Below, in pieces: positions 9,979-23,626 of a stretch of DNA of 64,000 nucleotides; position 1 is the first letter of the stretch; the number at the start of each line of letters is the position of its first letter. Made by a program: the position numbers and the translations under genes. Below the pieces are notes generated by a model. It saw nothing but the letters and a program-made list of their open reading frames with translations, was not told the DNA's origin and did not search any database. Source of the stretch: Ktedonobacteria bacterium (GTDB lineage Bacteria; Chloroflexota; Ktedonobacteria; Ktedonobacterales; JACDGC01); the NCBI GenBank assembly GCA_027459785.1, contig DAIDGU010000087.1:12707-76706 (forward strand), given 5' to 3'.

Positions 9979-10518
9979 TTACTGCGTCGGTGGCATGGGC
10001 GGTAGCGGGGGCATGTTCGCCATGACGGTTGCCTTGGCCTTCGCCTGCCGCGCCGTCAGGCGGCGCTGGAGGAAGTAGCCCAGGCCCAGCAGCAACAAGC
10101 TGACGACCGCGGCTCCGCCGCCCGTCGCATACTCGTCTGTCGCCTGCTTCTGCGGATTTGTGTAGTAGCCGTTGGCATACAGCGTCGGATTCTCGTCGCT
10201 CGCGTCATAGAGCTTGAACGCCAGCACGTGCGTCGTGCCTTGGTCCACCCACAGGTTGACTTTACCATCTTTGTAGGCCGAATCCGGCACCGCCGGTGTG
10301 AAATCGTTTTTGTTGAACGTGTATGATGTATTCGGCTGCTCGTTCAAGACGATCTCCGAATGGTCATACGATCCATTCGTCGTGTATACCCGGAAGTGCT
10401 GGAGCGTGCCATCCACCTCGACGGGCTTCGCCGGGTGCGCGGTGGCGACGAAGTAGCCGGCTACGATCAAGCCGATGACGCCCAGGATGTATAAAACCAA
10501 GACGTTGCGCCGTTGCAT
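9979..10518 (-). CDS. Hypothetical membrane protein (N- and C-terminal TM helices, extracytoplasmic middle)
   Basis: Within ORF 9979..10668; ATG 10518 after GGAGAG; 'VLVLYILGVIGLIVAGYFV' and 'AAVVSLLLLGLGYFL' hydrophobic helices; no recognisable family. Confidence 0.6.
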   Translation of the reverse strand: MQRRNVLVLYILGVIGLIVAGYFVATAHPAKPVEVDGTLQHFRVYTTNGSYDHSEIVLNEQPNTSYTFNKNDFTPAVPDSAYKDGKVNLWVDQGTTHVLAFKLYDASDENPTLYANGYYTNPQKQATDEYATGGGAAVVSLLLLGLGYFLQRRLTARQAKAKATVMANMPPLPPMPPTQ

Positions 10519-10849
10519 AAAAAATCTCTCCTTCGTATGGTATCGCGTGCGTGTTGTAGCTCTAGCTCTCTCTATCGGCACTATGAGCGCAACGCGCACC
10601 CCGACTATAGCAACCGAATGTACAGATGTCAATGGGGAAGGGCGGGCGAGAGCAAGAAGGAAGTGCATTTGCTACCACCATAGCGAGTTTTGGTGAAATG
10701 TTTCACACTTGCGCCGCCCCGTTCTTGTGGTATGGGGGCAGTTGGCGTTACACTGATCTCGGCTGCCGGTGTATTGCTTTGCGCATAAACCCGCTTGCTG
10801 AGCGGCGTGAGCAGCGGAGCGCCAGATGCCGCAGCGGAGGATAAGCAAC

Positions 10850-11521
10850 ATGAATGGCTTGAATTTCGGCGATAACACCCCCACGCGGCGGTTGCCGGTG
10901 TATCTGCTGCTGGATACGTCCGGCTCGATGGCCGGCGCACCCATCGTCGCCGTCAATAACGGCGTGGGGCTGCTTTATCGTGAATTGATGAACAACCCTA
11001 ACGCGCTGGAAACGGTGTGGATCTCGGTCATCACCTTTGCGCAGGACGCGAAGCGCACGCCGCTGACCGACCTCAGCACGTTCACGCCGCCGGTGCTGAC
11101 CGCTGGCGGGCCGACGGCGCTGGGCGCGGCCTTGCGCGAACTGGGACGCGCGCTGGATAGCGATGTCATCGCCAATTCGCCAGATCGCAAGGGCGACTAT
11201 AAGCCGCTGGCCTTCCTGCTGACGGATGGCGCGCCGACCGACGAGTGGCGTAGCGCCGCCCAGGAGCTGAAGCAACGCGCCAAAGCGCCGCTTGGTACTT
11301 TTGTGGCGCTGGGCTGCGGCGACGAGGTGAAGGTGGACGTGCTGAAGGAGATCACCGATCAGGTGCTGCTGATGCGCGACGTGCAGGCGGACTCGCTGCA
11401 AGAGTTCTTCCGCTGGGTCTCGGCCTCGGTCAAACAGGCGAGCATCGCCGCGCCGCGCCTGGGCAGTGGTGAATCGCTGACGGCCATGCCACCGCCGCCG
11501 CCCTCCATCGAAGTGCTGTAG
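10850..11521 (+). CDS. TerY-like von Willebrand factor A (vWA) protein
   Basis: Within ORF 10826..11521; ATG 10850 after GCGGAGG; MIDAS 'LLLDTSGSM' (DxSxS), 'GGPTALGAAL', 'AFLLTDGAPTD'. Confidence 0.85.
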   Translation: MNGLNFGDNTPTRRLPVYLLLDTSGSMAGAPIVAVNNGVGLLYRELMNNPNALETVWISVITFAQDAKRTPLTDLSTFTPPVLTAGGPTALGAALRELGRALDSDVIANSPDRKGDYKPLAFLLTDGAPTDEWRSAAQELKQRAKAPLGTFVALGCGDEVKVDVLKEITDQVLLMRDVQADSLQEFFRWVSASVKQASIAAPRLGSGESLTAMPPPPPSIEVL

Positions 11522-11526
11522 CCGTA

Positions 11527-11660
11527 GGGAGCGATTGAAACCGTGACGTGGGCGGAGGATGGCGGGCGGGTGGCGATGGGGACGGCGGGCGGTTGAAACC
11601 GCGCCTAAGAGCCTACGGCTACGAAGTCCACCTGCGTGGACTGGAGTTGGGCGTACCCGA
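11527..11660. repeat. F3 repeat copy between the vWA gene and the vWA-like/PP2C gene
   Basis: GCGATTGAAACCG ... GGGCGGTTGAAACCGCGCCTAAGAGCCTACGGCTACGAAGTCCACCTGCGTGGACT. Confidence 0.75.
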
Positions 11661-11774
11661 TCTGTTCGTCACGGTGCATTCATCGCTCGCCAATAATGTT
11701 TGCCATCTTGGCACGATCTGCGCTACCATACTGGGGAGCGCAGGGGAGCCTATTGCGTGCAGGGGAGATCGCCG

Positions 11775-13286
11775 ATGCCCATGCCTGACCCGCCGCGCGG
11801 GGCGGATCGCCGCTCCGCCCTGATCTTCGCGCTGGATGTCACGGGCGGGGATGATGTCGTTTATCGGGTGGCCGTCTACTTGCAGGATCTCGCGCGCAAG
11901 CTGGCGGATGCCCCCGGTTTGCTGCGCCGGACGCGCATCGATCTGGTGATCTTCGACGCGCAGGATGCCACGGTGGTCGCGCTGGAGCAGTTGTTGGCCG
12001 TCGCGCAGCGCATGGCCGCCGCGCCGAACCCGACGGGTGCCGCCTTCGCGCCGCTCTACCGGCAGATCAAACAGTTGCCCTATGAGAACGGCGGCTTCCA
12101 CACATTCATCCTGCTGACACGCACGCCCGCCGCCGGTTGGCAGTCGGATGTCGCGCCGCTGCACGCGCTGGTCGCTTCCGTCACGGCGCTCTGCTGCGGA
12201 CCAGACCCCGCGCCGGAGGTGGCCCACGCGCTCAGCAAGGAACCCGGTGGCACGCGGATCGTCGATCCGCTGGCGACCCTGCGCAAGCAATTCGATTCGA
12301 TTGGAGCCTGGCTTATGGGCAACTTCGCTGATTCTCCCGCGCCGCCACCGGAGCCACCAGCACAGCCCCCCGCGTCCGTGCCGGACGGCCCACCGCCGGC
12401 GGAAGAACGCCCCGCCGTGGTCGCCCCGCCCACCGGCGCGAAATGGCGCGTCATCGAGCCGACTGACCGCAGCGATGCGGTGGACCACCTCGCGGCGCAG
12501 CAGATGGCTGGCGTCGCGGGCTGGCAGATGATCGGGGCCAGCCGGCGCGGCAAGCTCCATGCGCACGAAGGCTCGTACCGCGAGGACGCCTTCGCGCTGG
12601 GGATGCACCATGGCTGGCACCTGATCGCCGTCGCCGACGGCGCGGGATCGTGCCGGCTTTCGCGCGTGGGGGCGCGCGTCGCTTGCGCCGGAGCCATCGA
12701 CGGTCTGAAGGCCGGCCTGAACCGCTTCTGGAATGGCGCGAAGGACGACCTGGGCGCGACGATGCTGCGCCAGGTGATCCGTGCCGGCATCGAAGAGGCG
12801 CACGCCGCCGTCTATACCGAAGCGGGCAAGCGCGACATCCCTGTGCGCGAACTATCGTCCACGCTGCTGCTGCTGGCCCTCGGCCCCGTGCCGTCGCCGC
12901 AGCCCTGGCTGGCGGTGGGGCAGATCGGCGATGGCATGGTGTTGGCGGTGGGGCCAGACGACGACCTGCGCGTGTTGGGCGCGGCGGAAAAGGGCTTCTA
13001 TGCTGGCGAAACCGTCTTTCTGCCCGGCCTGGCCGTCAGCGAGTGGGAGGCCCACACCTGGGCGCTGCCGGCGGACCCCCTGCCAGAGATGGTGCTGGTG
13101 ATGTCGGACGGCGTGGCCGACGATCTGGTGCCGCTGCGCCAGCAAGCGCCGACGCTGATCGGCGGGCTGCGCGAGGTGATCGTGCGGCCCCAGCCGGACC
13201 AGGATCTGCTGACGATCCTGGGCTACGAAAAACGCGATTCTGCTGATGATCGAACGCTGGCGGTCGTGTATCGCCGCGAGAAGTAG
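11775..13286 (+). CDS. Fusion protein: N-terminal vWA-like domain with degenerate MIDAS plus C-terminal PP2C-type Ser/Thr phosphatase
   Basis: Within ORF 11700..13286; ATG 11775 after AGGGGAG; N-terminus 'LIFALDVTGGDD' (DxTxG, not DxSxS); C-terminus 'LIAVADGAGS', 'GQIGDGMVLAV', 'LVMSDGVADDL', 'DDRTLAVVY'. Confidence 0.8.
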   Translation: MPMPDPPRGADRRSALIFALDVTGGDDVVYRVAVYLQDLARKLADAPGLLRRTRIDLVIFDAQDATVVALEQLLAVAQRMAAAPNPTGAAFAPLYRQIKQLPYENGGFHTFILLTRTPAAGWQSDVAPLHALVASVTALCCGPDPAPEVAHALSKEPGGTRIVDPLATLRKQFDSIGAWLMGNFADSPAPPPEPPAQPPASVPDGPPPAEERPAVVAPPTGAKWRVIEPTDRSDAVDHLAAQQMAGVAGWQMIGASRRGKLHAHEGSYREDAFALGMHHGWHLIAVADGAGSCRLSRVGARVACAGAIDGLKAGLNRFWNGAKDDLGATMLRQVIRAGIEEAHAAVYTEAGKRDIPVRELSSTLLLLALGPVPSPQPWLAVGQIGDGMVLAVGPDDDLRVLGAAEKGFYAGETVFLPGLAVSEWEAHTWALPADPLPEMVLVMSDGVADDLVPLRQQAPTLIGGLREVIVRPQPDQDLLTILGYEKRDSADDRTLAVVYRREK

Positions 13287-13287
13287 G

Positions 13288-14790
13288 ATGAAGATGGGCA
13301 ATCGACCTCCACGTGGCCACGATCCGCGCACGCCGGCAGCGCCAGGCAACACGACAGCCACGGCGCAGATGATGCCGGTAGTGACGAGTGATCGGCGCAC
13401 CATCGCCTGTGCGACCGAACCGTTCAGCTACGGCTCCGAAGGGCGGCTCTACTTCACCGCCGATCATCAGTATGTCGTCAAGCTGTATAATCGCCCGGAA
13501 GCCTGGCGCGAGGCCAGTTTGCACACGATCATCCGCAAGCGCGCCGCGGTGATGGGCCACCATGTGGAGTATTGGTCGCGCTATTTCTGCTGGCCGGAAG
13601 CCCTGGTGATGCGCCCGTCGCTGGGGATGTATATGCCGCGCGCCCGGCCTGGGCTGCGCCCGCTGGCGCAGTTCCTTTCGCCGCGCTTCCGCAAGCGCCT
13701 GGCTGCCGAAGTCGGTCCCGGCGTGCTTGGCTCCTGGATCGGCCATGTGGGCATCATGATCAAGCTGGCGCGCACGGTGAACCGGCTGCATAATAACGGC
13801 CTCTGCCACTCCGATCTCTCGACGAATAACCTGCTGGTGAACCCCGCGACGGGCGACGCGACGCTGATCGACTGCGACGGCCTGGTGGAGACGGGATCGA
13901 ACATCCTGCTGCCGACGGTGCTGGGGACGCCGGATTACATGGCCCCCGAACTGGTCATCGGCATGATGGCGCGCGGCGTGGAGCCGCCGCAGCCGACGGT
14001 AGCGACCGACCGCCATGCGCTGGCCGTCCTCATCTATCAGAGCTTGCTCTTTCATCATCCCTTGCGCGGCAGCAAGTTCCACTCGCCCGACCCCGACGAA
14101 GACGAACGCCTGATGCTGGGCAAAGGCGCGCTGTATATCGAGCATCCCACCGATCACTCCAACCGGCCCAAGACGCCCTTCATGCGCGCCAGCATCCTGG
14201 GCAAGCAGATGCAAGATCTCTTCGCCCGCGCCTTCATCGAGGGCGTGCGCCACCCGGAACAGCGCCCGCTGGCGGCGGAATGGGAGGGCGCGCTGGTGCG
14301 CCTCTATGACCAGACGCTGCCCTGCTCGAATCCGGCTTGCGAGGCGAAATCTTTCGTCTACGTGGAGGGCGGCAGCACGCGCTGCCCCTGGTGCCATACA
14401 GAAGCCAAGGGGCCGCGCCAGATCCCGATCCTCAGCTTTTGCAAGCCCGACGGGCGCATCAACTCCACGACGTATCCGGTCGATTTCCGGCTGGTCGGCT
14501 GGCCCAAGCGCACGCTGCACACCTGGCACGTGGAACTGGGCAAGCTGCCCGGCCCCGGCGTGGAAGCCGCGCCGCTCGCCGCCTTCCAGTGGGAGCCAGA
14601 CCCGCGCGCCCGCGCCCGCGAGGTGTGGTCGCTGGTCAACCTCGCCATCCCCCAGATGGCCGACGCCACCGGTGCCACCCCCGTCCCCGTTCCCGTGGGC
14701 CGCGCCGTGGAACTGCGCCCCGGCACGCGCCTGGTCTTCGGCGGCGGCGACCGCGCCCGCGTGGTGGAAGTGCATATGCAAGGGATCTAG
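13288..14790 (+). CDS. Atypical protein kinase-like protein with C-terminal CxxC..CxxC zinc ribbon and beta-rich tail
   Basis: Within ORF 13246..14790; 'YVVKLY' (Lys), 'LCHSDLSTNNLLV' (HxDxxxxN), 'LIDCDGL', 'GTPDYMAPE'; 'CSNPACEAKSFVYVEGGSTRCPWCH'; start abuts previous stop (13286). Confidence 0.75.
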   Translation: MKMGNRPPRGHDPRTPAAPGNTTATAQMMPVVTSDRRTIACATEPFSYGSEGRLYFTADHQYVVKLYNRPEAWREASLHTIIRKRAAVMGHHVEYWSRYFCWPEALVMRPSLGMYMPRARPGLRPLAQFLSPRFRKRLAAEVGPGVLGSWIGHVGIMIKLARTVNRLHNNGLCHSDLSTNNLLVNPATGDATLIDCDGLVETGSNILLPTVLGTPDYMAPELVIGMMARGVEPPQPTVATDRHALAVLIYQSLLFHHPLRGSKFHSPDPDEDERLMLGKGALYIEHPTDHSNRPKTPFMRASILGKQMQDLFARAFIEGVRHPEQRPLAAEWEGALVRLYDQTLPCSNPACEAKSFVYVEGGSTRCPWCHTEAKGPRQIPILSFCKPDGRINSTTYPVDFRLVGWPKRTLHTWHVELGKLPGPGVEAAPLAAFQWEPDPRARAREVWSLVNLAIPQMADATGATPVPVPVGRAVELRPGTRLVFGGGDRARVVEVHMQGI

Positions 14791-14944
14791 CAGGTTGACG
14801 ACAATGCGCTGGGGACGGCGGATGGTTGGCGCTGCGCTGGCATCTGCCCCTATCGACCGAGAAGCCTCCCAGTACTACCGTTTTGCGCGGCTCGCTATCT
14901 TGCCAGCCAACGGGCCAATAGTACCATGCTACCAGGGGCTAGAT

Positions 14945-14973
14945 TTGACGCCGTTCATGGCATACGCTAGACT
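14945..14973 (+). promoter_or_regulatory. Candidate sigma-70 promoter for the membrane Ser/Thr kinase gene
   Basis: TTGACG, 17 nt spacer, TAGACT; followed by palindrome ATGCGCTGGCAGCGCAT in the leader. Confidence 0.4.
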
Positions 14974-15053
14974 GTGCCAGGAGAGATGTTTGGGGCATCA
15001 CCCAGCGAACATGCGCTGGCAGCGCATCCGTCGCGCGAGGAGGTAACGGCACA

Positions 15054-16607
15054 GTGGCGCAGCCTGGTCTCATCGCCGGAATCTACCTGGCGCAACGCTA
15101 TCGCGTCGAATATTTGATCGCGACGGGCGGCTATGCGAGCGTGTATCGTGTCACCGATATGCAGGTGACGGCGTCGCGCGCCCTGAAAGAAGTGATCGAT
15201 CAGGATGCCGGCATCCGCGAGCAGTTCGCACTGGAAGCTCAGTTGCTGATGCGCTCGCGCCACCCGAACATCCCGCGCGGCTACGATCATTTCGAGGAGA
15301 ACGAGCGCGCCTATCTGGTGATGGATTATGTCGAGGGCCACGACCTGGAACAGATGCTGGCGACCTCGCTGGCGCAGCGCAACCGGCCCATCGATGAGGC
15401 GCAGGCGTTGCGCTGGCTGCTGCCGATCTGCGATGCCCTGCACGAGATGCATACGCAGCCCGTCCCCATCATCCACCGCGACATCAAGCCGGCGAATATC
15501 AAGCTGACGGCGCTGGGCGTGCCGATCCTCATCGACTTCGGCCTGGCGAAGTTGGGCCTGCCCGGTCCGACCAACCAGGCGGCGCAGGGCGTCACCCCTG
15601 GCTATGCCCCGCCCGAACAATATCTGGCACAGGGCAAAACGGACCCCCGCACGGACATCTATGGCATGGGCGCGACGCTCTATACCCTGCTGACGGGCCG
15701 CGAGCCGCCCGAAGCGCCGAACCGGCTGCTGACGAAGTCCGGCCACACCGGCGAACCCCTGGTTCCCGCGCGCATCCTGAACCCGGCCATCAGCGCCGGC
15801 ACGGCGAATATCATCGACCGCGCGATGTCCATCGGCACGACTCAGCGCCACCAGAGCGCGCGTGAATTGCAGGCCGACCTGGCCGCCGCGCTCCATCGCC
15901 TGGAATATGGCCGCGCCCCTAGCACCGGCGGCGCGCAGACGGGGCCGCTGGCCAAAGTCGTCCCCGCCGGCGGCCCGACGGGACCACTCCTGGCGCGCGG
16001 ACCCAGCGATTCGGATGGCGCGACGATGCGCCGCACGGCCATGCGTGTGCCGGTGGCCGCGCCGAACGTCTCCCTGCCGCCCCACGCCCCGCAAGGCTCT
16101 GTCGCGCCGACGCGCGTGCTGCCGCCTGCGCCGGTCGCCACCCCCGTCGCCACCACCCAGGTGCTACGCCAGCCGATCTGGTTCAACCTCGGCGGGCCGC
16201 TGGTGCAGCGTATGGGCAAAATAGGCCTGGTGCTGGCCGCCGTCGAACTCTATTGGGGGCTGCTGTGCGCCGCCGCGCTGGGCGGGGCCGTCGGCACGCG
16301 CGGCTTCACGCATCCCCCCTCGCTGCTGGTGCTGGGCGCGGGTGCGGCCTGGCTCGGCATCGTCATCTGGCTCACTGCGCTGGTGGTGCGCGCCGTGGAT
16401 CGCCCGATCACGCGGCGCGGCAAGCTCCCCGCGCACCGCCGCTGGATGCAGGGCATCAGCCTGGGCGTGCTGTGGCTGGCGATGAATGCCGTCGCCCTCT
16501 TCGCGCTGAGCAATGTCTCGCCGGTGGCGGGCCTCTTCGGCCTGGGCTTCCTCGGCCTCGCCAGCATCCTGACGGGCCTGCTCACCGTGGCGAACGTCTT
16601 GGCCTAA
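15054..16607 (+). CDS. Hanks-type Ser/Thr protein kinase with Pro-rich linker and C-terminal multi-TM region
   Basis: GTG 15054 after GAGGAGG; 'GGYASVYRV', 'ALKEV', 'HRDIKPANIKL', 'DFGLAK', 'GYAPPEQ'; about four hydrophobic helices in the last 170 aa. Confidence 0.9.
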   Translation: MAQPGLIAGIYLAQRYRVEYLIATGGYASVYRVTDMQVTASRALKEVIDQDAGIREQFALEAQLLMRSRHPNIPRGYDHFEENERAYLVMDYVEGHDLEQMLATSLAQRNRPIDEAQALRWLLPICDALHEMHTQPVPIIHRDIKPANIKLTALGVPILIDFGLAKLGLPGPTNQAAQGVTPGYAPPEQYLAQGKTDPRTDIYGMGATLYTLLTGREPPEAPNRLLTKSGHTGEPLVPARILNPAISAGTANIIDRAMSIGTTQRHQSARELQADLAAALHRLEYGRAPSTGGAQTGPLAKVVPAGGPTGPLLARGPSDSDGATMRRTAMRVPVAAPNVSLPPHAPQGSVAPTRVLPPAPVATPVATTQVLRQPIWFNLGGPLVQRMGKIGLVLAAVELYWGLLCAAALGGAVGTRGFTHPPSLLVLGAGAAWLGIVIWLTALVVRAVDRPITRRGKLPAHRRWMQGISLGVLWLAMNAVALFALSNVSPVAGLFGLGFLGLASILTGLLTVANVLA

Positions 16608-16639
16608 CGCGGATTATCGCTCCTCTGCACACCACCCGC

Positions 16640-18260
16640 TGACTTCTGCTATACTACCGCATAGAGATGGAGCGTTCTCATGGAGGAAGTACTAAGTACT
16701 TGAAATAGTATCCAAACATGTGCTAAGACTTGATGACCATTCTCCGTTGCTTTTCCAGTCGGTTGTACGGCCTGCGGAACTATCGAAAAACCTTGAAGGA
16801 GGCGTTGGCACAAGGTGGAAACAACGATCAAGGCCCACAAGATATGCTTGAACCCAATGCCTGAGCAGGAAGCTTATCTGCGCCGTGCTGCTGGCACGCG
16901 CCGCTTCGTCTACAACTGGGGCTTGGATCAATGGAAACAACACTACGCCGAGTACCAGGCAGGCCAGCGCGCCAGACCGCCAACCGCCTATGATCTCAAA
17001 CAGCAGTTCAATGCCATCCGTGAGCAGGAGTTTCCTTGGACGCATGACGTGACCAAATGTGTCATCGAAGGCGCTTTCGATGACCTGGGCAAAGCTTTCT
17101 CTAATTTTTTTGCTGGACGAGCCAAGTACCCCAACTTCAAGAAGAGGAACAAGAGTCATGAATCCTTCTATATAGCCAATGACAAATTCTCCGTGGGCGA
17201 TCAGTGGGTCACGGTGCCTGTGTTAGGCGATTTCGTGCTCAAAGAGCGCGAATCCAATGGAACACAAACCGAGAAAATCAGGAATCGTAGGAAGTACCAG
17301 CGCAAGCTGGGCAAGGTGAACCTGGCGGAGAAGTTGCGTTTTGTAGTGTCCGATTGTAGCAAGAAGGCGGGTAAGCGCCGGCAGGAACGCAAGAAGGTCT
17401 CCTCTCCCTCGGTCAAGATTGTGGTCGCAACCATCGGGAAGTCGGGGGGATACTGGTACATCAGTATTCAGGTTGCTATCCCACGAGTCCCTGTGGTCAA
17501 CACTCAACCGGCGTTAGGCATGGATGTGGGGATCAAAGAATCAGCCATCGTCAGTGATGGGAGGCGGTTTGAGAACCAAAAACCGTTGAGCAAATACCTA
17601 ACGAAGCTGAAGCGCCTCAACCGCGACCTGAGCCGCAAACAATATGACCCCGACACCAAACAAGGCAGCAAGAACCGGGAAGAAATCAAGCTCAAGCTGG
17701 CTCGCCTGCATGGGCAGATTGCTCACATCCGTGAGGATACCCACCACAAGCTCACCACCGCGATAGCGCGCACGTGCAGTGTGGTGGGCATCGAAGACCT
17801 GCATGTAAAGGGGCTGGTCAAGAACCGCAAGCTGGCCAGGGCAATGGCGGATGCCGGGCTGGGGCAGGTATTGCGCTTCTTGGAGACCAAGATGCAGGCA
17901 GCGGGCGGAGTAGCCGTCTTGGTGGATCGCTTCTTTCCATCGACCAAGACCTGCTCGCAGTGTGGGCATGTCAAGAAGCGCATGCCCTTGAAGTACCGCA
18001 CGTTCATTTGTATGAAGTGTGGGGTGATGATCGACCGCGATTTAAATGCAGCGATCAATCTGGAACGTGAGGCACGGCGTATCGTACGAGACGTGCTGCA
18101 CCTTCCCGTCCCGGACAGTGGCTCAGGCCGGACGTAAAACTGCCTGTGGAGACCTGGTGAGACCGAAACCGAGAGCTGATCACGAAGGCGCGGTGCGATG
18201 GCAAGGGTCGGTGAAGCAGGAACAACGAAATTTGCCTGCATGCTGTAAACATGTGGGTAT
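16640..18260 (+). mobile_element. Standalone tnpB element (IS200/IS605-superfamily, IS1341-like; no tnpA); boundaries approximate
   Basis: Visibly lower-GC block inserted between kinase stop (16607) and Roadblock start (18284); carries only tnpB; AGTACT-containing near-palindrome at about 16686-16702 near the left end. Confidence 0.6.
16815..18137 (+). CDS. tnpB: TnpB (RNA-guided RuvC-like endonuclease, IS605 OrfB family)
   Basis: 'GMDVGIKESAIV' (RuvC-I D), 'VVGIEDLHVKGL' (RuvC-II E), Zn finger 'CSQCGH..17..CMKCG', 'DRDLNAAINL' (RuvC-III D); GAAGGAGG upstream of GTG. Confidence 0.9.
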   Translation: METTIKAHKICLNPMPEQEAYLRRAAGTRRFVYNWGLDQWKQHYAEYQAGQRARPPTAYDLKQQFNAIREQEFPWTHDVTKCVIEGAFDDLGKAFSNFFAGRAKYPNFKKRNKSHESFYIANDKFSVGDQWVTVPVLGDFVLKERESNGTQTEKIRNRRKYQRKLGKVNLAEKLRFVVSDCSKKAGKRRQERKKVSSPSVKIVVATIGKSGGYWYISIQVAIPRVPVVNTQPALGMDVGIKESAIVSDGRRFENQKPLSKYLTKLKRLNRDLSRKQYDPDTKQGSKNREEIKLKLARLHGQIAHIREDTHHKLTTAIARTCSVVGIEDLHVKGLVKNRKLARAMADAGLGQVLRFLETKMQAAGGVAVLVDRFFPSTKTCSQCGHVKKRMPLKYRTFICMKCGVMIDRDLNAAINLEREARRIVRDVLHLPVPDSGSGRT

Positions 18261-18283
18261 CAAGATCGGAGCAGAATCCGGTG

Positions 18284-18799
18284 ATGGCGGGAGACGTAGT
18301 GGGCAACGCGCCGCAACTGGACGTGATTCGCGCCCGCGTGGCCGCCTTCGCGGCGGAGGCGCAGGCGCGGCAGGTGGTGTTGCTGGAAATGAGTGGTCAC
18401 GTGCTGGCGGCGGCGGGTGCGGCGTGGCAAGACGATGTGGCGCTGGGCGCGCTGCTGGCTGGCCTCTTCGGCTCCGCGCGGGCGCTCGCTGCTATCTTCG
18501 GCGAAGCCGATTTTCGCGCCTTCTTCCAGCAAGGCAACGCAGTGAGCATCTATACGTTGCTTATCAGCGACCGCTGGCTGCTCGTCACCGTCTTTGACCG
18601 GCAGAGCCAGGTGGGCATGGTGCGCATGCTGGCGACCCAGGCGGCAACGGCGTTGGGCGACGACCTCGCGCGGCTGGCGACAGCGGATGTCACGGCGGTG
18701 CGGGCGACGATCCACAGCCAGGCATTTCGCGCCAGCTTCGACGACACCCTGGAGCGGCTATTTCAGGATGAACCCCAGACGGCGAATGAGGAGCGGTGA
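18284..18799 (+). CDS. Roadblock/LC7-domain protein (MglB-like)
   Basis: Within ORF 18251..18799; 'VVLLEMSGHVLAAAG...ALGALLAGLFGSARALA...LLVTVFD' typical Roadblock pattern; immediately upstream of the MglA-like gene. Confidence 0.75.
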   Translation: MAGDVVGNAPQLDVIRARVAAFAAEAQARQVVLLEMSGHVLAAAGAAWQDDVALGALLAGLFGSARALAAIFGEADFRAFFQQGNAVSIYTLLISDRWLLVTVFDRQSQVGMVRMLATQAATALGDDLARLATADVTAVRATIHSQAFRASFDDTLERLFQDEPQTANEER

Positions 18800-18803
18800 T
18801 CGT

Positions 18804-19379
18804 ATGGCGCTCATCAATACGGCGGGCCGCGAGATCCAATGCAAGCTGGTCTATTATGGCATCGGCCAGAGCGGCAAAACCAGCAACGTGCAATATGTCT
18901 ATCAGCACTCGCCGGAAGAGTCGCGCGGGCAGTTTTTGTCCGTCGCCACCGAGCAAGAGATGACGCTCTTCTTCGACTTCCTGCCGCTGGATTTCGGCAT
19001 GGTGCATGGCTTCCACGTTCGCTTCCACCTCTACACCGTGCCGGGGCAGATCCGCTATGAACGCACTCGCCAGGCCGTGCTTGAAGGTGCGGACGGCGTG
19101 GTCTTCGTCGCGGATTCGCGGCGCGATCGTCTCGAAGAAAACTATGGTGGCTTGATCGAATTGGAAGCGAATATGCATGCACAGGGCAAAGATATGGCTG
19201 AGTTCCCGCTCGTTTTGCAATGGAACAAGCGCGACCTGCCCGACGCGCTCGCCACGCCGGTGCTGGAACGCTACCTGAATCGGCGCGGGCTGCCCAGCTT
19301 CGAGGCGGCGGCCATCCAGGGTGTGGGCGTTTTCCCGACCTTGCGCGCAATCTGTCGGCTGATCATGGCACGATTGTAG
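18804..19379 (+). CDS. MglA-family small Ras-like GTPase
   Basis: Within ORF 18594..19379; P-loop 'GIGQSGKTS', MglA-type G3 'YTVPGQ', G4 'WNKRD'; GAGGAG before ATG 18804. Confidence 0.88.
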   Translation: MALINTAGREIQCKLVYYGIGQSGKTSNVQYVYQHSPEESRGQFLSVATEQEMTLFFDFLPLDFGMVHGFHVRFHLYTVPGQIRYERTRQAVLEGADGVVFVADSRRDRLEENYGGLIELEANMHAQGKDMAEFPLVLQWNKRDLPDALATPVLERYLNRRGLPSFEAAAIQGVGVFPTLRAICRLIMARL

Positions 19380-19385
19380 GATTGT

Positions 19386-20246
19386 ATGATCGAGGGTTTG
19401 TTGCAGGAGATCCCGCTGGCGGAAGTGATCCAGTTGATCGCCATCAACGCGGCGACGGGGGATCTGGAACTGGTGCCGCTCTTTCCGGCGCACCAGCCGC
19501 GCGACCGCATGCCCGTCGGTCATCTCTATTTCCGCGAAGGCCATCCCCACGCGGCGTTTTTAGGCGATCGCGCCCGCGAGCCGGCGGTGGAAAATATGTT
19601 TCTATGGGAGGCGGGGGTGTTCGCCTTCGCGCCGCGCGCCGCCCATGACCTGCCGCCCGCCAACCTGAGCATGGAGTCGCACACGCTGATCCTCCAGGGC
19701 ATCACGCGGCAAGATCGCTGGCACCGCGCCTGTGAACTCGTGCCAACCGTGCATACCGTCTTGCAGCGCGCCACGCCGGCGCTGCCCGCGCTGCCGCCCC
19801 CAGGCCACACGACGGAAGCGCAGATCCTGGCGCAGTGCGACGGCCAGGCGTCGCTGGCGGCGCTTGCCACGCGGGTCGGGATCGGGCGGTTGCGCGCCCG
19901 CGAGGATGCGGCGAAGCTGCTGCGCGCGGGTTTCGTCGCGCCGGTGCCACCCAGCGCCGGTGAACGGCTGGTGCGCCTGGTGGTGGCGTCGGCCTATCCC
20001 TCGCTGGGCGTGGCGGCGGAACTGTTTTGCGATGACGCGCTGCGCGCCGCTGGCATGCCGCCGGAGTTCCTGGCGCGCGTGACCACGCTGTCGGTCGCCG
20101 CCGTGGCCCAGGTGGTCGCGGCCATCGAAACCGGTGTGGCGGCGGTGCTGGGACCGCAGCGGGCGAGCGATCTGGCCGAACGTTTGCGGCTGGACCTGGG
20201 CATCAGTGGCTATGTGTCCAACGGGAGGGACGTGCAGCATGTCTGA
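19386..20246 (+). CDS. DUF4388 (PATAN-type) domain protein
   Basis: 'GLLQEIPLAEVIQLIAINAATGDLEL' matches the DUF4388 N-terminal signature as I remember it; 6 nt after the GTPase stop. Confidence 0.65.
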   Translation: MIEGLLQEIPLAEVIQLIAINAATGDLELVPLFPAHQPRDRMPVGHLYFREGHPHAAFLGDRAREPAVENMFLWEAGVFAFAPRAAHDLPPANLSMESHTLILQGITRQDRWHRACELVPTVHTVLQRATPALPALPPPGHTTEAQILAQCDGQASLAALATRVGIGRLRAREDAAKLLRAGFVAPVPPSAGERLVRLVVASAYPSLGVAAELFCDDALRAAGMPPEFLARVTTLSVAAVAQVVAAIETGVAAVLGPQRASDLAERLRLDLGISGYVSNGRDVQHV

Positions 20247-21090
20247 GGCGGAGGCCGATCTGACGGCGGGGCATTACCTGCCCTCCGGTGAATTTGTGAT
20301 GCGCGCGGACGTGCGCGCCTATGAGCCGGGGGCGAACGGGCGGCTGGGGCCGGGCAATCTGCTGCGCTACTGCGAGTTGGTGGCAAATGTCGCGTCCGCC
20401 GCCGCCGGCTTCAGTCCGGCATGGTATGCGGCGCGGAGCGAGGGTTGGGTGATCTTCCGCCAGACCATTGAATTGAATGCGCCGGTCGGCATCGGCCAAC
20501 CGTTGGACCTGATGACGTGGGTCCACAACTTCTCGCGGGTGGCTTCGCTGCGCTGCTATCGCGTGACCAACGCCACGACGGGGGCCGTCGTCGCCCGCAC
20601 AGCCACCACCTGGGCCTATGTAGACCGCCAGCGCCAGATGCCGCGCCGCATTCCGCCAGAGGTGCAAGCGCGCATTCCGCTGGTAAACCGCGAGCCGCTG
20701 CCGCCGCGCCCGCAATGGGAGGCATGGGAAAGCCACGCCGCGCCCGATCTGCCCCCGACGCAGGTGGAATGGTGGGCGCGTGGCTACGAGGCCGATTCGC
20801 TCAAGCATGTCAACAACTGCGTCTATGCCGACTGGCTCAGTGAAGCGGCGCGGCTGGCCTTCGCCCAGTGGGCCGCGCGTGATCCGCGCTTCCAGTCCCC
20901 GCCCCTCATCCGCCGCCTGACCCTCAATTACCAGCGGTCGGCGCTGCCAGGCGATGGCGTCTCGATCTCCACCACACCGGAACGCATCGGGCGGCGCGGC
21001 ATCGTCCTCAACCATACCATCACCGCGCGCGACGACCCGGCCATGGCCATCATGACGGCGACGGCCTGGTATCTTTTTGCGCAGCCATGA
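20239..21090 (+). CDS. Tandem hotdog-fold thioesterase (acyl-ACP thioesterase-like)
   Basis: Within ORF 20134..21090; two hotdog-like halves ('GWVIFRQTIELNAPV...', 'NNCVYADWLSEAA...'); ATG 20239 overlaps previous stop (ATGTCTGA), GGGAGGGA upstream. Confidence 0.65.
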   Translation: MSEAEADLTAGHYLPSGEFVMRADVRAYEPGANGRLGPGNLLRYCELVANVASAAAGFSPAWYAARSEGWVIFRQTIELNAPVGIGQPLDLMTWVHNFSRVASLRCYRVTNATTGAVVARTATTWAYVDRQRQMPRRIPPEVQARIPLVNREPLPPRPQWEAWESHAAPDLPPTQVEWWARGYEADSLKHVNNCVYADWLSEAARLAFAQWAARDPRFQSPPLIRRLTLNYQRSALPGDGVSISTTPERIGRRGIVLNHTITARDDPAMAIMTATAWYLFAQP

Positions 21091-21130
21091 AGCTTGCTGG
21101 TTAATGGAATATCAGCGCGCCACCGCGCTT

Positions 21131-23428
21131 TTACCGTTGCGCCGGCAACTTCCCCGTCGCTTCCCCTTCTGCAATGGGGAGGGAGGTGGCGGGCGGGGTT
21201 ATGTGCGCCAGTGGTGACGGCCACCAGTTGGCGCGGCCCAGCAGCGCCACCACAGAGGGGACGAGCAGCGTGCGCACCAGGAATGTATCCAGCAGGACGC
21301 CGATGCCGATGCTGATGCCGAGTTGATGGATTTGATCCGAGTTGCCCGCCAGCCCGGCGATCAAGAACGTGGCGGCGAGGATCAGGCCGGCGGAGGTGAC
21401 GGTGGTGCCGGTGGCGTTGAGCGCCACGGCGACGGCCTCGCGCAGCGGGCGATGGTGCGCTTCCTCGCGGATGCGGCTCATCACCAGAATGTTATAGTCC
21501 TCGCCCAGCGCCATCAGGAAGATGAACATCAGGAACGGCAGCACGAAGTTCAGCCCGCCAGTGTTGCCGAGGATCTGGAAGATCAGCACTGCCAGGCCGA
21601 GCGAGGTGGCGAAGGAGAGCGCCACGCTGGCGACGAGGTAGAGCGGCGCGACCAGGCTGCGCATCACGATGGCCAACAGCAGCGCGATCAGCACCAGCAC
21701 AATCGGCACGATATGCGTCAGATCGCTATCCGAGGCGTGGCTCACGTCGTAGGAAGAGGCGGCGCGGCCCAGCACGCCGCTGTCCGTCGCCCCGACCTGC
21801 TGGGCGATGTTCGTCACCGCCGCGCGGATCGCCGGCACCGCGTTCAACGCCGCCGTGCTGGTGGGATCGCCCGCCGCGAGCGTGGTGTAATATTGTACCG
21901 TGCGCCCGTCGGCGCTGATAAACTGCGCCTCCGCGCGATAGAGCCGATATGCCTGGGCCGGCACGGGGCTGCCCGCCGGCGGGGTGGGCGCGAGGTTCTG
22001 CGGCGGACCGAGGTAGCCGTAGAGCTTGGCGAGCTGTGCGGGCGGGATGGCCGTGCCGTTGAGGTTCAACGCGCCATTCACCGACGTGAAAACGCTGTTG
22101 GCACTCAATTGCTGTTCCGCCTGTTGCACCGTCGTCAAATGGCCCCAGACGGAAGCGGGGAAGGTCAGCACGATGGTCGTAGGGTTGGCCACAGCGGCGG
22201 GGAAGTGCGCATTCAACGCAGCACTGCCAGCGGCGGATGCGCTGCCGGCGGGGCCGGTGGTCGTGCCAGCGAAGCCGGCGGGAGCGTATTGCAGCGCGAA
22301 GAGCGCCACCCCACTGAATAGCACCAAGCCGCTGACCAGCGTGATCACGGGATGGGCCACGACCTGCGCCGAGAGTTTGCTCCACGCGCCGGCCCGCACC
22401 TCGCCCGCTTTGATCGGCACCGGCCAGAAGGTCGCACGCCCGGCGACGGCCAACAGCGCCGGCAACAGCGTCAGCGCCGCCAGCAACATCAGCGCGATGC
22501 CGATGGCCAGCCCCGGCCCCAGCCCTTTATAGATACCGAACGTCGCCAGCACCAGGCTCAGCAGCGCGCCGATGACCGTGCCGGCGGAGAACGTGATCGA
22601 TTCGCCGACGCGCGCCACCGCGCGCACCACCGCCTCTTGCGGTTCATAGCCGCGCTGCATCTCCTCGCGCATGCGCAGGGTCAGGAAGAGGCCGTAGTCC
22701 GTTCCCGCGCCCAGCACCAGCACCGTCAGGATGATCTGCGTCACCGACGACACCTGCAAGCCTGCCGTCGAGGCTTCGGCGATGATCGGTCCGGCGAGCG
22801 CCAGCGCCAGCCCGGCGGGGATGAGCGTCAGCAGCGGCGCGAGGATCGCGCGATACACGATGAAGAGCATCACCAGGATCGCCAGGTAGGAGAATACCTG
22901 CGTCAGACGTTGCGCTTGCTTGGTGGCCTGTTGGTTATCAACATTGGTGGCGACGGCCCCGGTGATAGCGACGCTTAGCCCCGGCGGCAGCGCCTGCGCC
23001 GCGACCGCGCCCCGGATGTCGCCGACGACCGTGCTGGCAACGGGATTGTTGGCGAGGATGTCCAGCGCGATCTGCGCTTTGTGCGCCTGGCCGTCCTTCG
23101 AATCACCCTGATCAGCGACGCCGGTGACGTGAGGCACGCCCTTGATCGCCGCTTCTGTCGCAAGGATCGCCGTCTCATCCGCCGTCGTCAACGGACCGCT
23201 GGCGCGCACGGCGATGAGCGTGGCGGACGATTTGCCCGCCGGTAGCAATGGCGCGGCCAGGTTCTGCGCATGGATGCTGGGCGCGGAATCGGGCAGGAAC
23301 GCGCTGGTATCGCTGTTTGCGACGCTGCCCAGCGAGGGCAAGAGCTTGACACACGCGACCGTGACGACCACCCACAGGATGATCATAGGATACCGGAACC
23401 GCACGGCGAAACGACCGAGCGCCATCAT
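21131..23428 (-). CDS. MMPL-family (RND superfamily) membrane transporter
   Basis: Within ORF 21131..23467; two 6-TM bundles with large loops, 'GTDYGLFL' and 'GEDYNILVMSRIREE' MMPL motifs; ATG 23428 after GGAGGAG. Confidence 0.9.
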   Translation of the reverse strand: MMALGRFAVRFRYPMIILWVVVTVACVKLLPSLGSVANSDTSAFLPDSAPSIHAQNLAAPLLPAGKSSATLIAVRASGPLTTADETAILATEAAIKGVPHVTGVADQGDSKDGQAHKAQIALDILANNPVASTVVGDIRGAVAAQALPPGLSVAITGAVATNVDNQQATKQAQRLTQVFSYLAILVMLFIVYRAILAPLLTLIPAGLALALAGPIIAEASTAGLQVSSVTQIILTVLVLGAGTDYGLFLTLRMREEMQRGYEPQEAVVRAVARVGESITFSAGTVIGALLSLVLATFGIYKGLGPGLAIGIALMLLAALTLLPALLAVAGRATFWPVPIKAGEVRAGAWSKLSAQVVAHPVITLVSGLVLFSGVALFALQYAPAGFAGTTTGPAGSASAAGSAALNAHFPAAVANPTTIVLTFPASVWGHLTTVQQAEQQLSANSVFTSVNGALNLNGTAIPPAQLAKLYGYLGPPQNLAPTPPAGSPVPAQAYRLYRAEAQFISADGRTVQYYTTLAAGDPTSTAALNAVPAIRAAVTNIAQQVGATDSGVLGRAASSYDVSHASDSDLTHIVPIVLVLIALLLAIVMRSLVAPLYLVASVALSFATSLGLAVLIFQILGNTGGLNFVLPFLMFIFLMALGEDYNILVMSRIREEAHHRPLREAVAVALNATGTTVTSAGLILAATFLIAGLAGNSDQIHQLGISIGIGVLLDTFLVRTLLVPSVVALLGRANWWPSPLAHITPPATSLPIAEGEATGKLPAQR

Positions 23429-23626
23429 GCTTGTATCTCCTCCGCGCCAGCCGAGCGTTGCCAACAACTAGCGAGCGCACTTGTTATGAATCACTGTATC
23501 TCATAATACGGCATGCGGCAAGCGTTGTACATCCGGCGTGAGGGCAAAAACCTTTGCCCGAAAGGGTAAAGATTATGTGCTTGCAGAGGTCACTGTGCGA
23601 AAAATCCGCCAGCGGTCCTTGTTATT

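Follow-up and report, generated by a model that had tools for sequence, protein, structure and literature searches.

The TerY-P triad (Anantharaman, Iyer and Aravind 2012) combines a TerY-like vWA protein with a PP2C phosphatase and a Ser/Thr kinase to which a zinc ribbon is fused C-terminally; it is predicted to act as a phosphorylation switch and is associated with tellurite-resistance, DNA-processing or restriction systems, and variants with an OB-fold were shown to be anti-phage (PMC10542128). The corresponding proteins of Escherichia coli are called YegL, PphC and YegI, and for YegI Ser/Thr kinase activity is documented (bioRxiv 10.1101/819920). A different type of signaling module is the MglA/MglB polarity switch known from Myxococcus xanthus and Thermus thermophilus, where the small GTPase MglA belongs to Group 1 (Wuichet and Sogaard-Andersen 2014), i.e., a group whose members all have an intrinsic Arg that MglB-stimulated hydrolysis requires (PMC4316618). 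An association of PATAN domains with mglA/mglB has already been described (Makarova 2006, as cited in PMC4316618), and in M. xanthus the gene of a Ser/Thr/Tyr (STY) kinase, masK, adjoins the mgl operon (PMC3546991). Parts that resemble both types of module are found side by side at positions 10850-21090 of the DNA considered here, a stretch of 64,000 nucleotides (nt) referred to below as the window. The region harbors a TerY-P-type triad, a membrane Hanks-type kinase, a TnpB insertion and a four-gene cassette that encodes an MglB-like Roadblock protein, an MglA paralogue, a PATAN protein and a thioesterase. In all likelihood, this part of the chromosome of a member of the Ktedonobacterales (Chloroflexota) is a mosaic whose units are independent; the triad, the lone membrane kinase, the insertion and the cassette are adjacent by chance.

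Nine genes, all on the + strand, were called from a listing of open reading frames (ORFs) and by inspection of start codons, and they are located where the original prediction had placed them; Pfam confirmed the domains on this strand. This prediction had also raised the possibility that the triad and the MglA module form one unit, and it had proposed beforehand a check of co-occurrence and synteny across genomes, where the two were never found adjacent. Using an alignment of 32 homologues of the triad kinase, 80 loci were collected in GTDB species genomes, none of which carries a gene for MglA, Roadblock, PATAN or the thioesterase (0/80, tblastn). The converse comparison, i.e., tblastn with all nine window proteins, identified no triad gene in any cassette locus compared, and the ~9 different contexts found upstream of the cassette all lack the triad (the homologous loci and contigs used in these neighborhood comparisons are numbered L001-L102). 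Because the triad and the MglA module are never adjacent in the 80 triad loci or in the cassette contexts, they are not one system.

The boundary between the two blocks can be located in a sister lineage (L005/L007), which displays 98% MglA identity and ~86% nucleotide identity to the window. Here, the sequence is collinear with window positions 14904-16657 and then from 18280 onward. On the 5' side of 14904, the place of the triad is taken in the sister lineage by a histidine kinase gene and by the decayed fragment of an unrelated TnpB. The nucleotide homology of the triad with its own relatives (L012/L101/L102) ends at 14780-14791, at the stop codon of the triad kinase. Because triad homology ends at 14791 and sister homology starts at 14904, the synteny break is found within the 264 nt that separate the two kinase genes, that of the triad and that of the Hanks type, and these homology limits define a seam at 14791-14903.

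The genes at 10850-14790 are classified from their sequences as a triad of the TerY-P/YegL-PphC-YegI type. The earlier description of a TerY-type triad is thereby borne out: the locus encodes a vWA protein that bears a metal-ion-dependent adhesion site (MIDAS), an adjacent PP2C phosphatase and a kinase with a zinc ribbon, in conserved co-occurrence. Sequence homology to the E. coli proteins is detectable for all three. The vWA protein (10850-11521; Pfam VWA, E 4.7e-7), where the MIDAS motif DTSGS (DxSxS) is intact and a TDG motif is present, is 36% identical to YegL (E 1e-28), and the phosphatase (11775-13286; Pfam PP2C_2, E 5.8e-36) is 27% identical to PphC (E 1e-6). The kinase gene (13288-14790; Pfam Pkinase) starts 1 nt past the PP2C stop, and its product is 26% identical to YegI (E 1e-11), the CPWC motif included. 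Residues K65, H174, D176, N181, D195 and D197 of this kinase are invariant among the 32 homologues, as are cysteines C346, C351, C366 and C369 of a zinc ribbon (CxxxxC...CxxC) that follows the kinase domain. An AlphaFold2 model (predicted local distance difference test, pLDDT, 90.4) places the kinase at residues 29-340, the ribbon at 343-370 and a beta domain at 378-499; Foldseek searches with this model returned kinase domains only, and the C-terminal beta domain was not identified. In this respect the protein differs from YegI, which has a two-pass membrane region, whereas the kinase in the window is modeled to end in the soluble beta domain. The gap between the vWA and PP2C genes (11522-11774) is unusually long at 253 nt, i.e., not tight, compared to 33 nt in L101, and a weak promoter-like match is found within it at 11700-11729.

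Unlike the described TerY-P proteins, the phosphatase in the window begins with an additional vWA domain (approximately amino acids (aa) 10-185, with PP2C at approximately 235-500), the MIDAS of which is degenerate. This N-terminus has no Pfam match even at E<=1, and a jackhmmer search with it in the locus set recruited only L012; the relation to vWA domains is detectable only using hhalign and a hidden Markov model of TerY-type vWA domains. With the latter profile, constructed from related loci, hmmsearch gave E 0.004 for the window protein and 1e-9 for two relatives, while the hhalign probability against TerY-type vWA was 83-97%. The DxSxS motif is changed to DVTGG and TDG to LTR, i.e., the MIDAS is lost, and because these residues are replaced the earlier label of a dead-looking vWA domain on the phosphatase holds.

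The 80 triad-kinase loci are spread over Chloroflexota, Bacteroidota, Verrucomicrobiota, Planctomycetota, Pseudomonadota, Bacillota, Acinetobacter and others. A PP2C gene is located directly upstream of the zinc-ribbon kinase in 72 of these loci (of the 8 without a PP2C match, 4 have <700 bp of upstream sequence), and one to four copies of a vWA gene are found upstream, in the same order, in 68 (tblastn in both cases). What the window shares with TerY-P and YegL-PphC-YegI is the three domain types as well as a gene order that is found in 68-72 of the 80 loci. A Hanks kinase is present in 4/80 (tblastn). The window has a single vWA gene, in contrast to 2-4 in Bacteroidota and Acinetobacter. In these groups, in Akkermansia and in others (L028-L091; e.g., L034:2221-11527 and L064:4432-11458) two to four tandem vWA paralogues reside 5' of the PP2C gene, and most PP2C proteins of these loci have an N-terminal extension of 150-330 aa that is not recognizably similar to that in the window. 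The closest Ktedonobacterales relatives, by kinase identity (L102, 81%; L101, 76%; L012, 75%), keep vWA-PP2C-kinase in other, unrelated contexts, and nucleotide homology with L101/L102 begins at 10860/10884, i.e., at the start of the vWA gene. We infer that the triad is a self-contained cassette that is horizontally mobile between genomes. Its kinase and phosphatase would set the phosphorylation of the vWA partner or of themselves, and the trigger would be metal, ligand or phage-derived cues, as proposed for TerY-P.

The genes at the other end of the region, Roadblock(MglB)-MglA-PATAN-thioesterase, are a separately conserved Ktedonobacterales cassette. It comprises an MglB-like Roadblock gene (18284-18799; Pfam Robl_LC7; NCBIfam MglB, E 7e-14), a gene for an MglA paralogue, i.e., an Arf/Ras-like GTPase (18804-19379), a PATAN (DUF4388) gene (19386-20246) and a thioesterase gene (20239-21090), with spacings of 4, 6 and -8 nt. 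The four genes are kept together in relatives at 92, 89, 85 and 82% MglA identity (L002, L008, L003 and L004, respectively), where both flanks differ and the upstream neighbors include an integrase island, an ArsR-type regulator, a CN-hydrolase and a patatin. The cassette is also found in L006, with different neighbors. Among PATAN relatives down to 43% identity (L096-L100), MglA-PATAN-thioesterase is kept within unrelated flanks. A recognizable Roadblock gene is present in L097/98; in L099/100 tblastn gave no Roadblock match, and a gene of 171/177 aa without a Pfam match is found at that position, and in L096 there is no Roadblock gene in the 320 nt upstream of MglA. Altogether, ~11 different flanking contexts were found, none with the triad, and the thioesterase is located 3' of PATAN in 10 of the 11 that extend far enough. 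The named MglA and PATAN matches are from Ktedonobacterales, Chloroflexota. Paralogue loci at 66% MglA identity (L009-11) harbor only Roadblock-MglA (MglB-MglA), followed by purH.

The alignment of the MglA paralogue with M. xanthus MglA covers the entire protein and scores 216 bits, and the Roadblock protein matches M. xanthus MglB (6izw_B) with 51 bits. As in the M. xanthus and T. thermophilus systems, the MglB-like gene is found directly upstream of MglA, ending 4 nt 5' of it. The motifs of the GTPase, i.e., G1 (GIGQSGKT), G3 (TVPGQ, within LYTVPGQ, with the catalytic Gln) and G4 (NKRD), include the G3 motif and catalytic Gln of Group 1. The intrinsic arginine finger, which GTPase-activating proteins of the MglB type have to position, is Met in the window (EQEMTLFFDF) where M. 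xanthus has Arg (TDRTLFFDF). In a survey of the 120 best MglA homologues, most members of the clade at >=72% identity have M, Q or L at this position, and all listed members of the canonical Ktedonobacterales MglA clade (~64-70% identity) have R; a separate canonical, Arg-bearing MglA-MglB pair exists in this order (L009-11). Met is found in the window, L001, L002, L005-8 and L099/100, Gln in L003, L004, L092 and L097/98, and Arg is retained in L093 and L094. In L096, which has no MglB gene, the finger residue is Ala and the catalytic Gln is replaced by Trp (SVPGW). Compared to Group 1, the Arg finger is exchanged for Met in the window and mostly for M, Q, L or A in the clade, and no convincing cassette-specific arginine able to compensate was found in the MglB-like protein. 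This pattern, as read from the alignments, indicates that in the paralogue linked to PATAN the selection for GTP hydrolysis is relaxed or altered, and the L096 protein looks like a pseudo-GTPase, a putative end point of the series. At this locus (L096:7405-9705) PATAN and thioesterase genes are still kept, with an 8-nt overlap, despite the loss of Arg, Gln and MglB.

The PATAN domain (PF14332, DUF4388; E 1.4e-10, above the gathering score) is found in 22/22 family members and an HTH_47 match in 13/22. An AlphaFold2 model of the window protein (pLDDT 91.5) consists of PATAN at residues 1-128, a winged helix at 143-186 and a helical bundle at 191-271; no PDB relative was found by sequence, and Foldseek against the PDB gave nothing below E 0.2. 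The full-length family, PATAN with a winged helix-turn-helix (wHTH), comprises 23 clusters, of which the named ones are all from Ktedonobacterales, and a metagenome scan with the PATAN alignment gave only 4 loci. We know of no solved structure or mechanism for PATAN domains. The PATAN gene resides directly 3' of mglA, as in the known association (Makarova et al. 2006; Wuichet and Sogaard-Andersen 2014), but the protein differs from known PATAN proteins in that the fusion partners of the domain are a winged helix and a helical bundle, not a receiver domain, and the cassette differs in that a dedicated thioesterase follows. Neither the linkage of a thioesterase to the GTPase module nor the arginine-finger loss was found in the searchable literature; the novelty, which is mild, does not go beyond a variant of the MglAB-PATAN theme that is specific to this lineage.

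The thioesterase is, on the basis of its sequence, predicted to be a double-hotdog enzyme of the acyl-ACP-thioesterase-like type. Both Acyl-ACP_TE hotdog domains, N and C (PF01643/PF20791), are above cut-off, and PDB 4gak is matched with E 6e-12. As in described acyl-ACP thioesterases (PF01643; 4gak, FatA/FatB), there are two hotdog domains and a D-x-x-x-H-V-N-N motif, of which residues D186/H190/N192/N193 are invariant in 10 cassette orthologues. It differs from these enzymes in its low identity, 35-42%, to the nearest representatives outside the cassette and in its putative operon linkage to a GTPase module. The lack of an Asn that plant enzymes have two residues before the His was considered as a mark of inactivation and rejected; its absence is uninformative because the position varies freely across 150 homologues. 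The earlier statement that no enzyme or transporter explains the output of the locus was too strong, as the thioesterase is itself an enzyme. At E<=1e-30 the subfamily has 16 representatives among 1.84 billion, i.e., its breadth is similar to that of the narrow PATAN family. In the window, the PATAN and thioesterase genes share 8 nt at their stop/start junction, in line with the suggestion that the thioesterase is translationally coupled, which we consider probable from the sequence; overlapping stop/start codons of these genes are found in at least 4 lineages (window, L003, L006 and L096).

Between the triad and the cassette, the gene of a membrane Hanks-type Ser/Thr kinase (15054-16607; Pfam Pkinase, E 8e-35) encodes a kinase domain, a Pro/Ala-rich linker and approximately four C-terminal hydrophobic helices, as judged by eye. 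An orthologue that is 88% identical is found directly 5' of Roadblock in L005/L007, where 94 nt (L005) separate the kinase stop from the Roadblock start. None of the remaining cassette loci has the kinase, and it is missing from the upstream regions in L002, L003, L004, L008, L092, L096 and L097. Its adjacency to Roadblock is limited to the window and the sister lineage, a divergence too small to be informative. Promoter-like sites are found 5' of the kinase (14945-14973, TTGACG-17-TAGACT) and in the native kinase-Roadblock spacer (16626-16655, TGCACA-18-TATACT), both + strand consensus matches only and both conserved in L005; these hexamers are weak evidence for separate promoters of the kinase and the cassette. 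The kinase is probably an ordinary membrane kinase with its own promoter-like site.

The original prediction likened this arrangement to actinobacterial conservons (CvnA-D), where a kinase gene is followed by Roadblock and MglA-family genes. The analogy fails on the defining parts. A conservon has CvnA, a histidine kinase that ends in an LPxR tail, whereas the kinase here is of the Hanks type and lacks a conserved linkage; CvnC is missing, its place being taken by the PATAN protein, and the TVPGQ/NKRD motifs of the window MglA differ from GTPGQ/NxFD of the Group-2 conservon GTPases.

The kinase-Roadblock spacer is interrupted by a TnpB-only insertion of the IS200/IS605 type. The element comprises 1588 extra bases (16678-18265, + strand) and ends 19 nt before the Roadblock ATG; L005 represents the empty site, where the 94-nt spacer into which the element is inserted, in the same orientation as the genes, is intact. 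The insertion proposed earlier is thus real, as shown by this empty site, with the bounds 16678-18265 (1588 bp) rather than 16640-18260. The search for relatives without the insertion, suggested at the same time, yielded L005/L007, and there the kinase stop stands beside the Roadblock start at an exact, uninterrupted junction, as had been anticipated. The tnpB gene (16815-18137, + strand; Pfam; NCBIfam guided_TnpB, 271 bits) is complete with helix-turn-helix, OrfB and zinc-ribbon domains (Pfam, NCBIfam), and the guanine-cytosine (GC) content of this stretch is 0.51-0.58 compared to ~0.65-0.73 in most flanking windows. There is no TnpA, which is optional in elements of this type, in the element region, where a minus-strand ORF at 16692-17159 has no Pfam match and is not TnpA; no terminal repeats of the element and no second copy in the window were found, and megablast against plasmids gave no match. 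A Logan contig of a ~98% identical strain (L001) carries the element at the same site and starts inside tnpB, which fits a repeated sequence. The element now cuts the promoter-like site at 16626-16655 off from the cassette genes, and cassette expression would probably depend on read-through from the tnpB element. Other TnpB genes or fragments, 28-34% identical to that of the window or an HTH_OrfB_IS605 remnant, are found a few kb from the cassette in L005:5440-6129, L092:3929-4546 and L099:5949-6383, and such elements seem abundant in these genomes. In the 92% relative, an integrase-bearing block of small hypothetical genes is located 5' of Roadblock (L002:3130-8814). There are signs that the upstream flank of the cassette is an insertion hotspot.

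From these comparisons, the relations between the units may be weighed. That the entire 10 kb is one integrated signaling system, in which a TerY-type triad feeds the MglA module, would be in line with the common strand, the regulatory nature of all domains and the short distances, but it is hardly conceivable given that MglA-module genes are found in 0/80 triad loci, that the triad is absent from all cassette contexts outside the window, that a seam is found at 14791-14904 and that, where the window has the triad, a histidine kinase and a decayed TnpB are found in the closest relative. A narrower link, where the Hanks kinase is a fifth member of the cassette and the input kinase of MglB/MglA, like MasK or loosely as in a conservon, is improbable. 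In its favor, the spacing is 94 nt in the uninterrupted sister locus and masK sets a precedent (PMC3546991), a likeness in gene position to masABK beside mglBA, where an STY-type kinase gene directly adjoins the mgl operon; in the cassette, such an adjacency is found in two very close lineages only. Against it, the adjacency is seen only at ~86% nucleotide identity and is missing upstream in the seven other loci listed above, and L005-conserved promoter-like sites are found both 5' of the kinase and within the spacer. Hanks kinases are, moreover, very numerous in Ktedonobacteria.

As for the parts themselves, the triad may be an anti-phage defense system (TerY-P, Gao 2020) in a defense island, which we regard as possible but doubtful. 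Its patchy, cross-phylum spread as a cassette and the literature on a defense role (PMC10542128) speak for it, as does the surrounding of the triad in L101, its closest relative on a long contig, where a DNA methyltransferase is found upstream (L101:2143-3399) and PRiA4_ORF3/DUF6930 and Schlafen-AlbA_2/HATPase_c_4 genes follow (L101:11506-14535), as in a defense island. However, the kinase in the window has a zinc ribbon and a beta domain, whereas the tested version has an OB-fold; no defense genes reside beside the triad in the window, where SDR and GH1 genes are found upstream, and yegLKI of E. coli K-12 is a chromosomal locus without known role. PADLOC returned no TerY-P match for the vWA and PP2C proteins and only generic kinase matches for the zinc-ribbon kinase, in a release where the presence of TerY-P models is unconfirmed (its other matches were to Cas12/TnpB); because neither vWA nor PP2C was matched, the triad is not assigned to the tested defense system. 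Also rather unlikely is the view that the thioesterase is only a conserved downstream passenger and the functional unit is MglB-MglA-PATAN, i.e., the already described association. The gene is missing in L092, gaps of 19-242 nt separate it from PATAN in L002, L004, L008 and L099, and there is no known mechanism that connects a hotdog thioesterase to MglA. Against this stand its presence in 10/11 contexts while all other neighbors change, the overlapping stop/start codons in the window, L003, L006 and L096, and a subfamily approximately as narrow as that of PATAN.

The interpretation preferred here, i.e., a mosaic with a TerY-P-type triad and a conserved GTPase-thioesterase cassette, has to accommodate several observations that weigh against it. 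Given the missing PADLOC match, a defense role of the triad is only putative; two PATAN-linked MglA copies (L093, L094) keep Arg, and one PATAN locus (L092) is without a thioesterase. The kinase-Roadblock adjacency is kept in the sister lineage, which together with masK makes a functional link of the kinase to MglAB conceivable. Operon boundaries are derived from spacing, synteny and weak promoter-like matches, and the cassette sample is small (~11 contexts, 23 PATAN clusters).

Outside the region, the SDR and GH1 genes upstream of the triad are accompanied by a minus-strand ORF of 229 aa (9979-10850) without a Pfam match and by a strong promoter-like site, TTGACA-17-TATAGT (11/12), at 10632-10604; the GC content decreases to 0.54-0.56 just 5' of the triad. 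On the 3' side of the thioesterase, at 21072-23467, the window has a minus-strand MMPL transporter, and the sister lineage (L006:3500-6010) has an NB-ARC/TPR protein. Because these downstream genes differ, the right edge of the conserved block is placed at ~21072. An Rfam scan of the whole window gave zero matches.

How the cassette operates may be outlined in conditional terms. Its MglA would be a slowly hydrolyzing or GTP-locked switch, with the MglB-like partner serving as a binding or exchange platform rather than as an efficient GTPase-activating protein; the PATAN-wHTH protein would be an effector or adaptor, and the coupled thioesterase would provide an enzymatic output or a co-regulated lipid function. 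In a more far-reaching version, the cassette would be a GTPase switch with a dedicated metabolic output, where the slow or GTP-locked MglA, via the PATAN-wHTH adaptor, positions or gates the thioesterase, possibly coupling polarity or hyphal-tip signaling to local fatty-acid release, with an optional Hanks kinase input in this species. This latter version is tentative, and we consider it rather unlikely. The Ktedonobacterales host lineage is filamentous and is not, to our knowledge, known to glide.

The apparent 10-kb "super-operon" is thus three modules joined by genome shuffling and an IS insertion, and because these modules are only juxtaposed it would be wrong to treat the region as a single system in annotation or in further study. 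The cassette, in turn, constitutes a natural series in which MglA paralogues lose the Arg finger and then the catalytic Gln and the GTPase-activating partner, while the linkage to PATAN and thioesterase is kept throughout. This series is a tractable case for the rewiring of bacterial Ras-like switches into non-cycling scaffolds, and it bears on what PATAN domains do with MglA.

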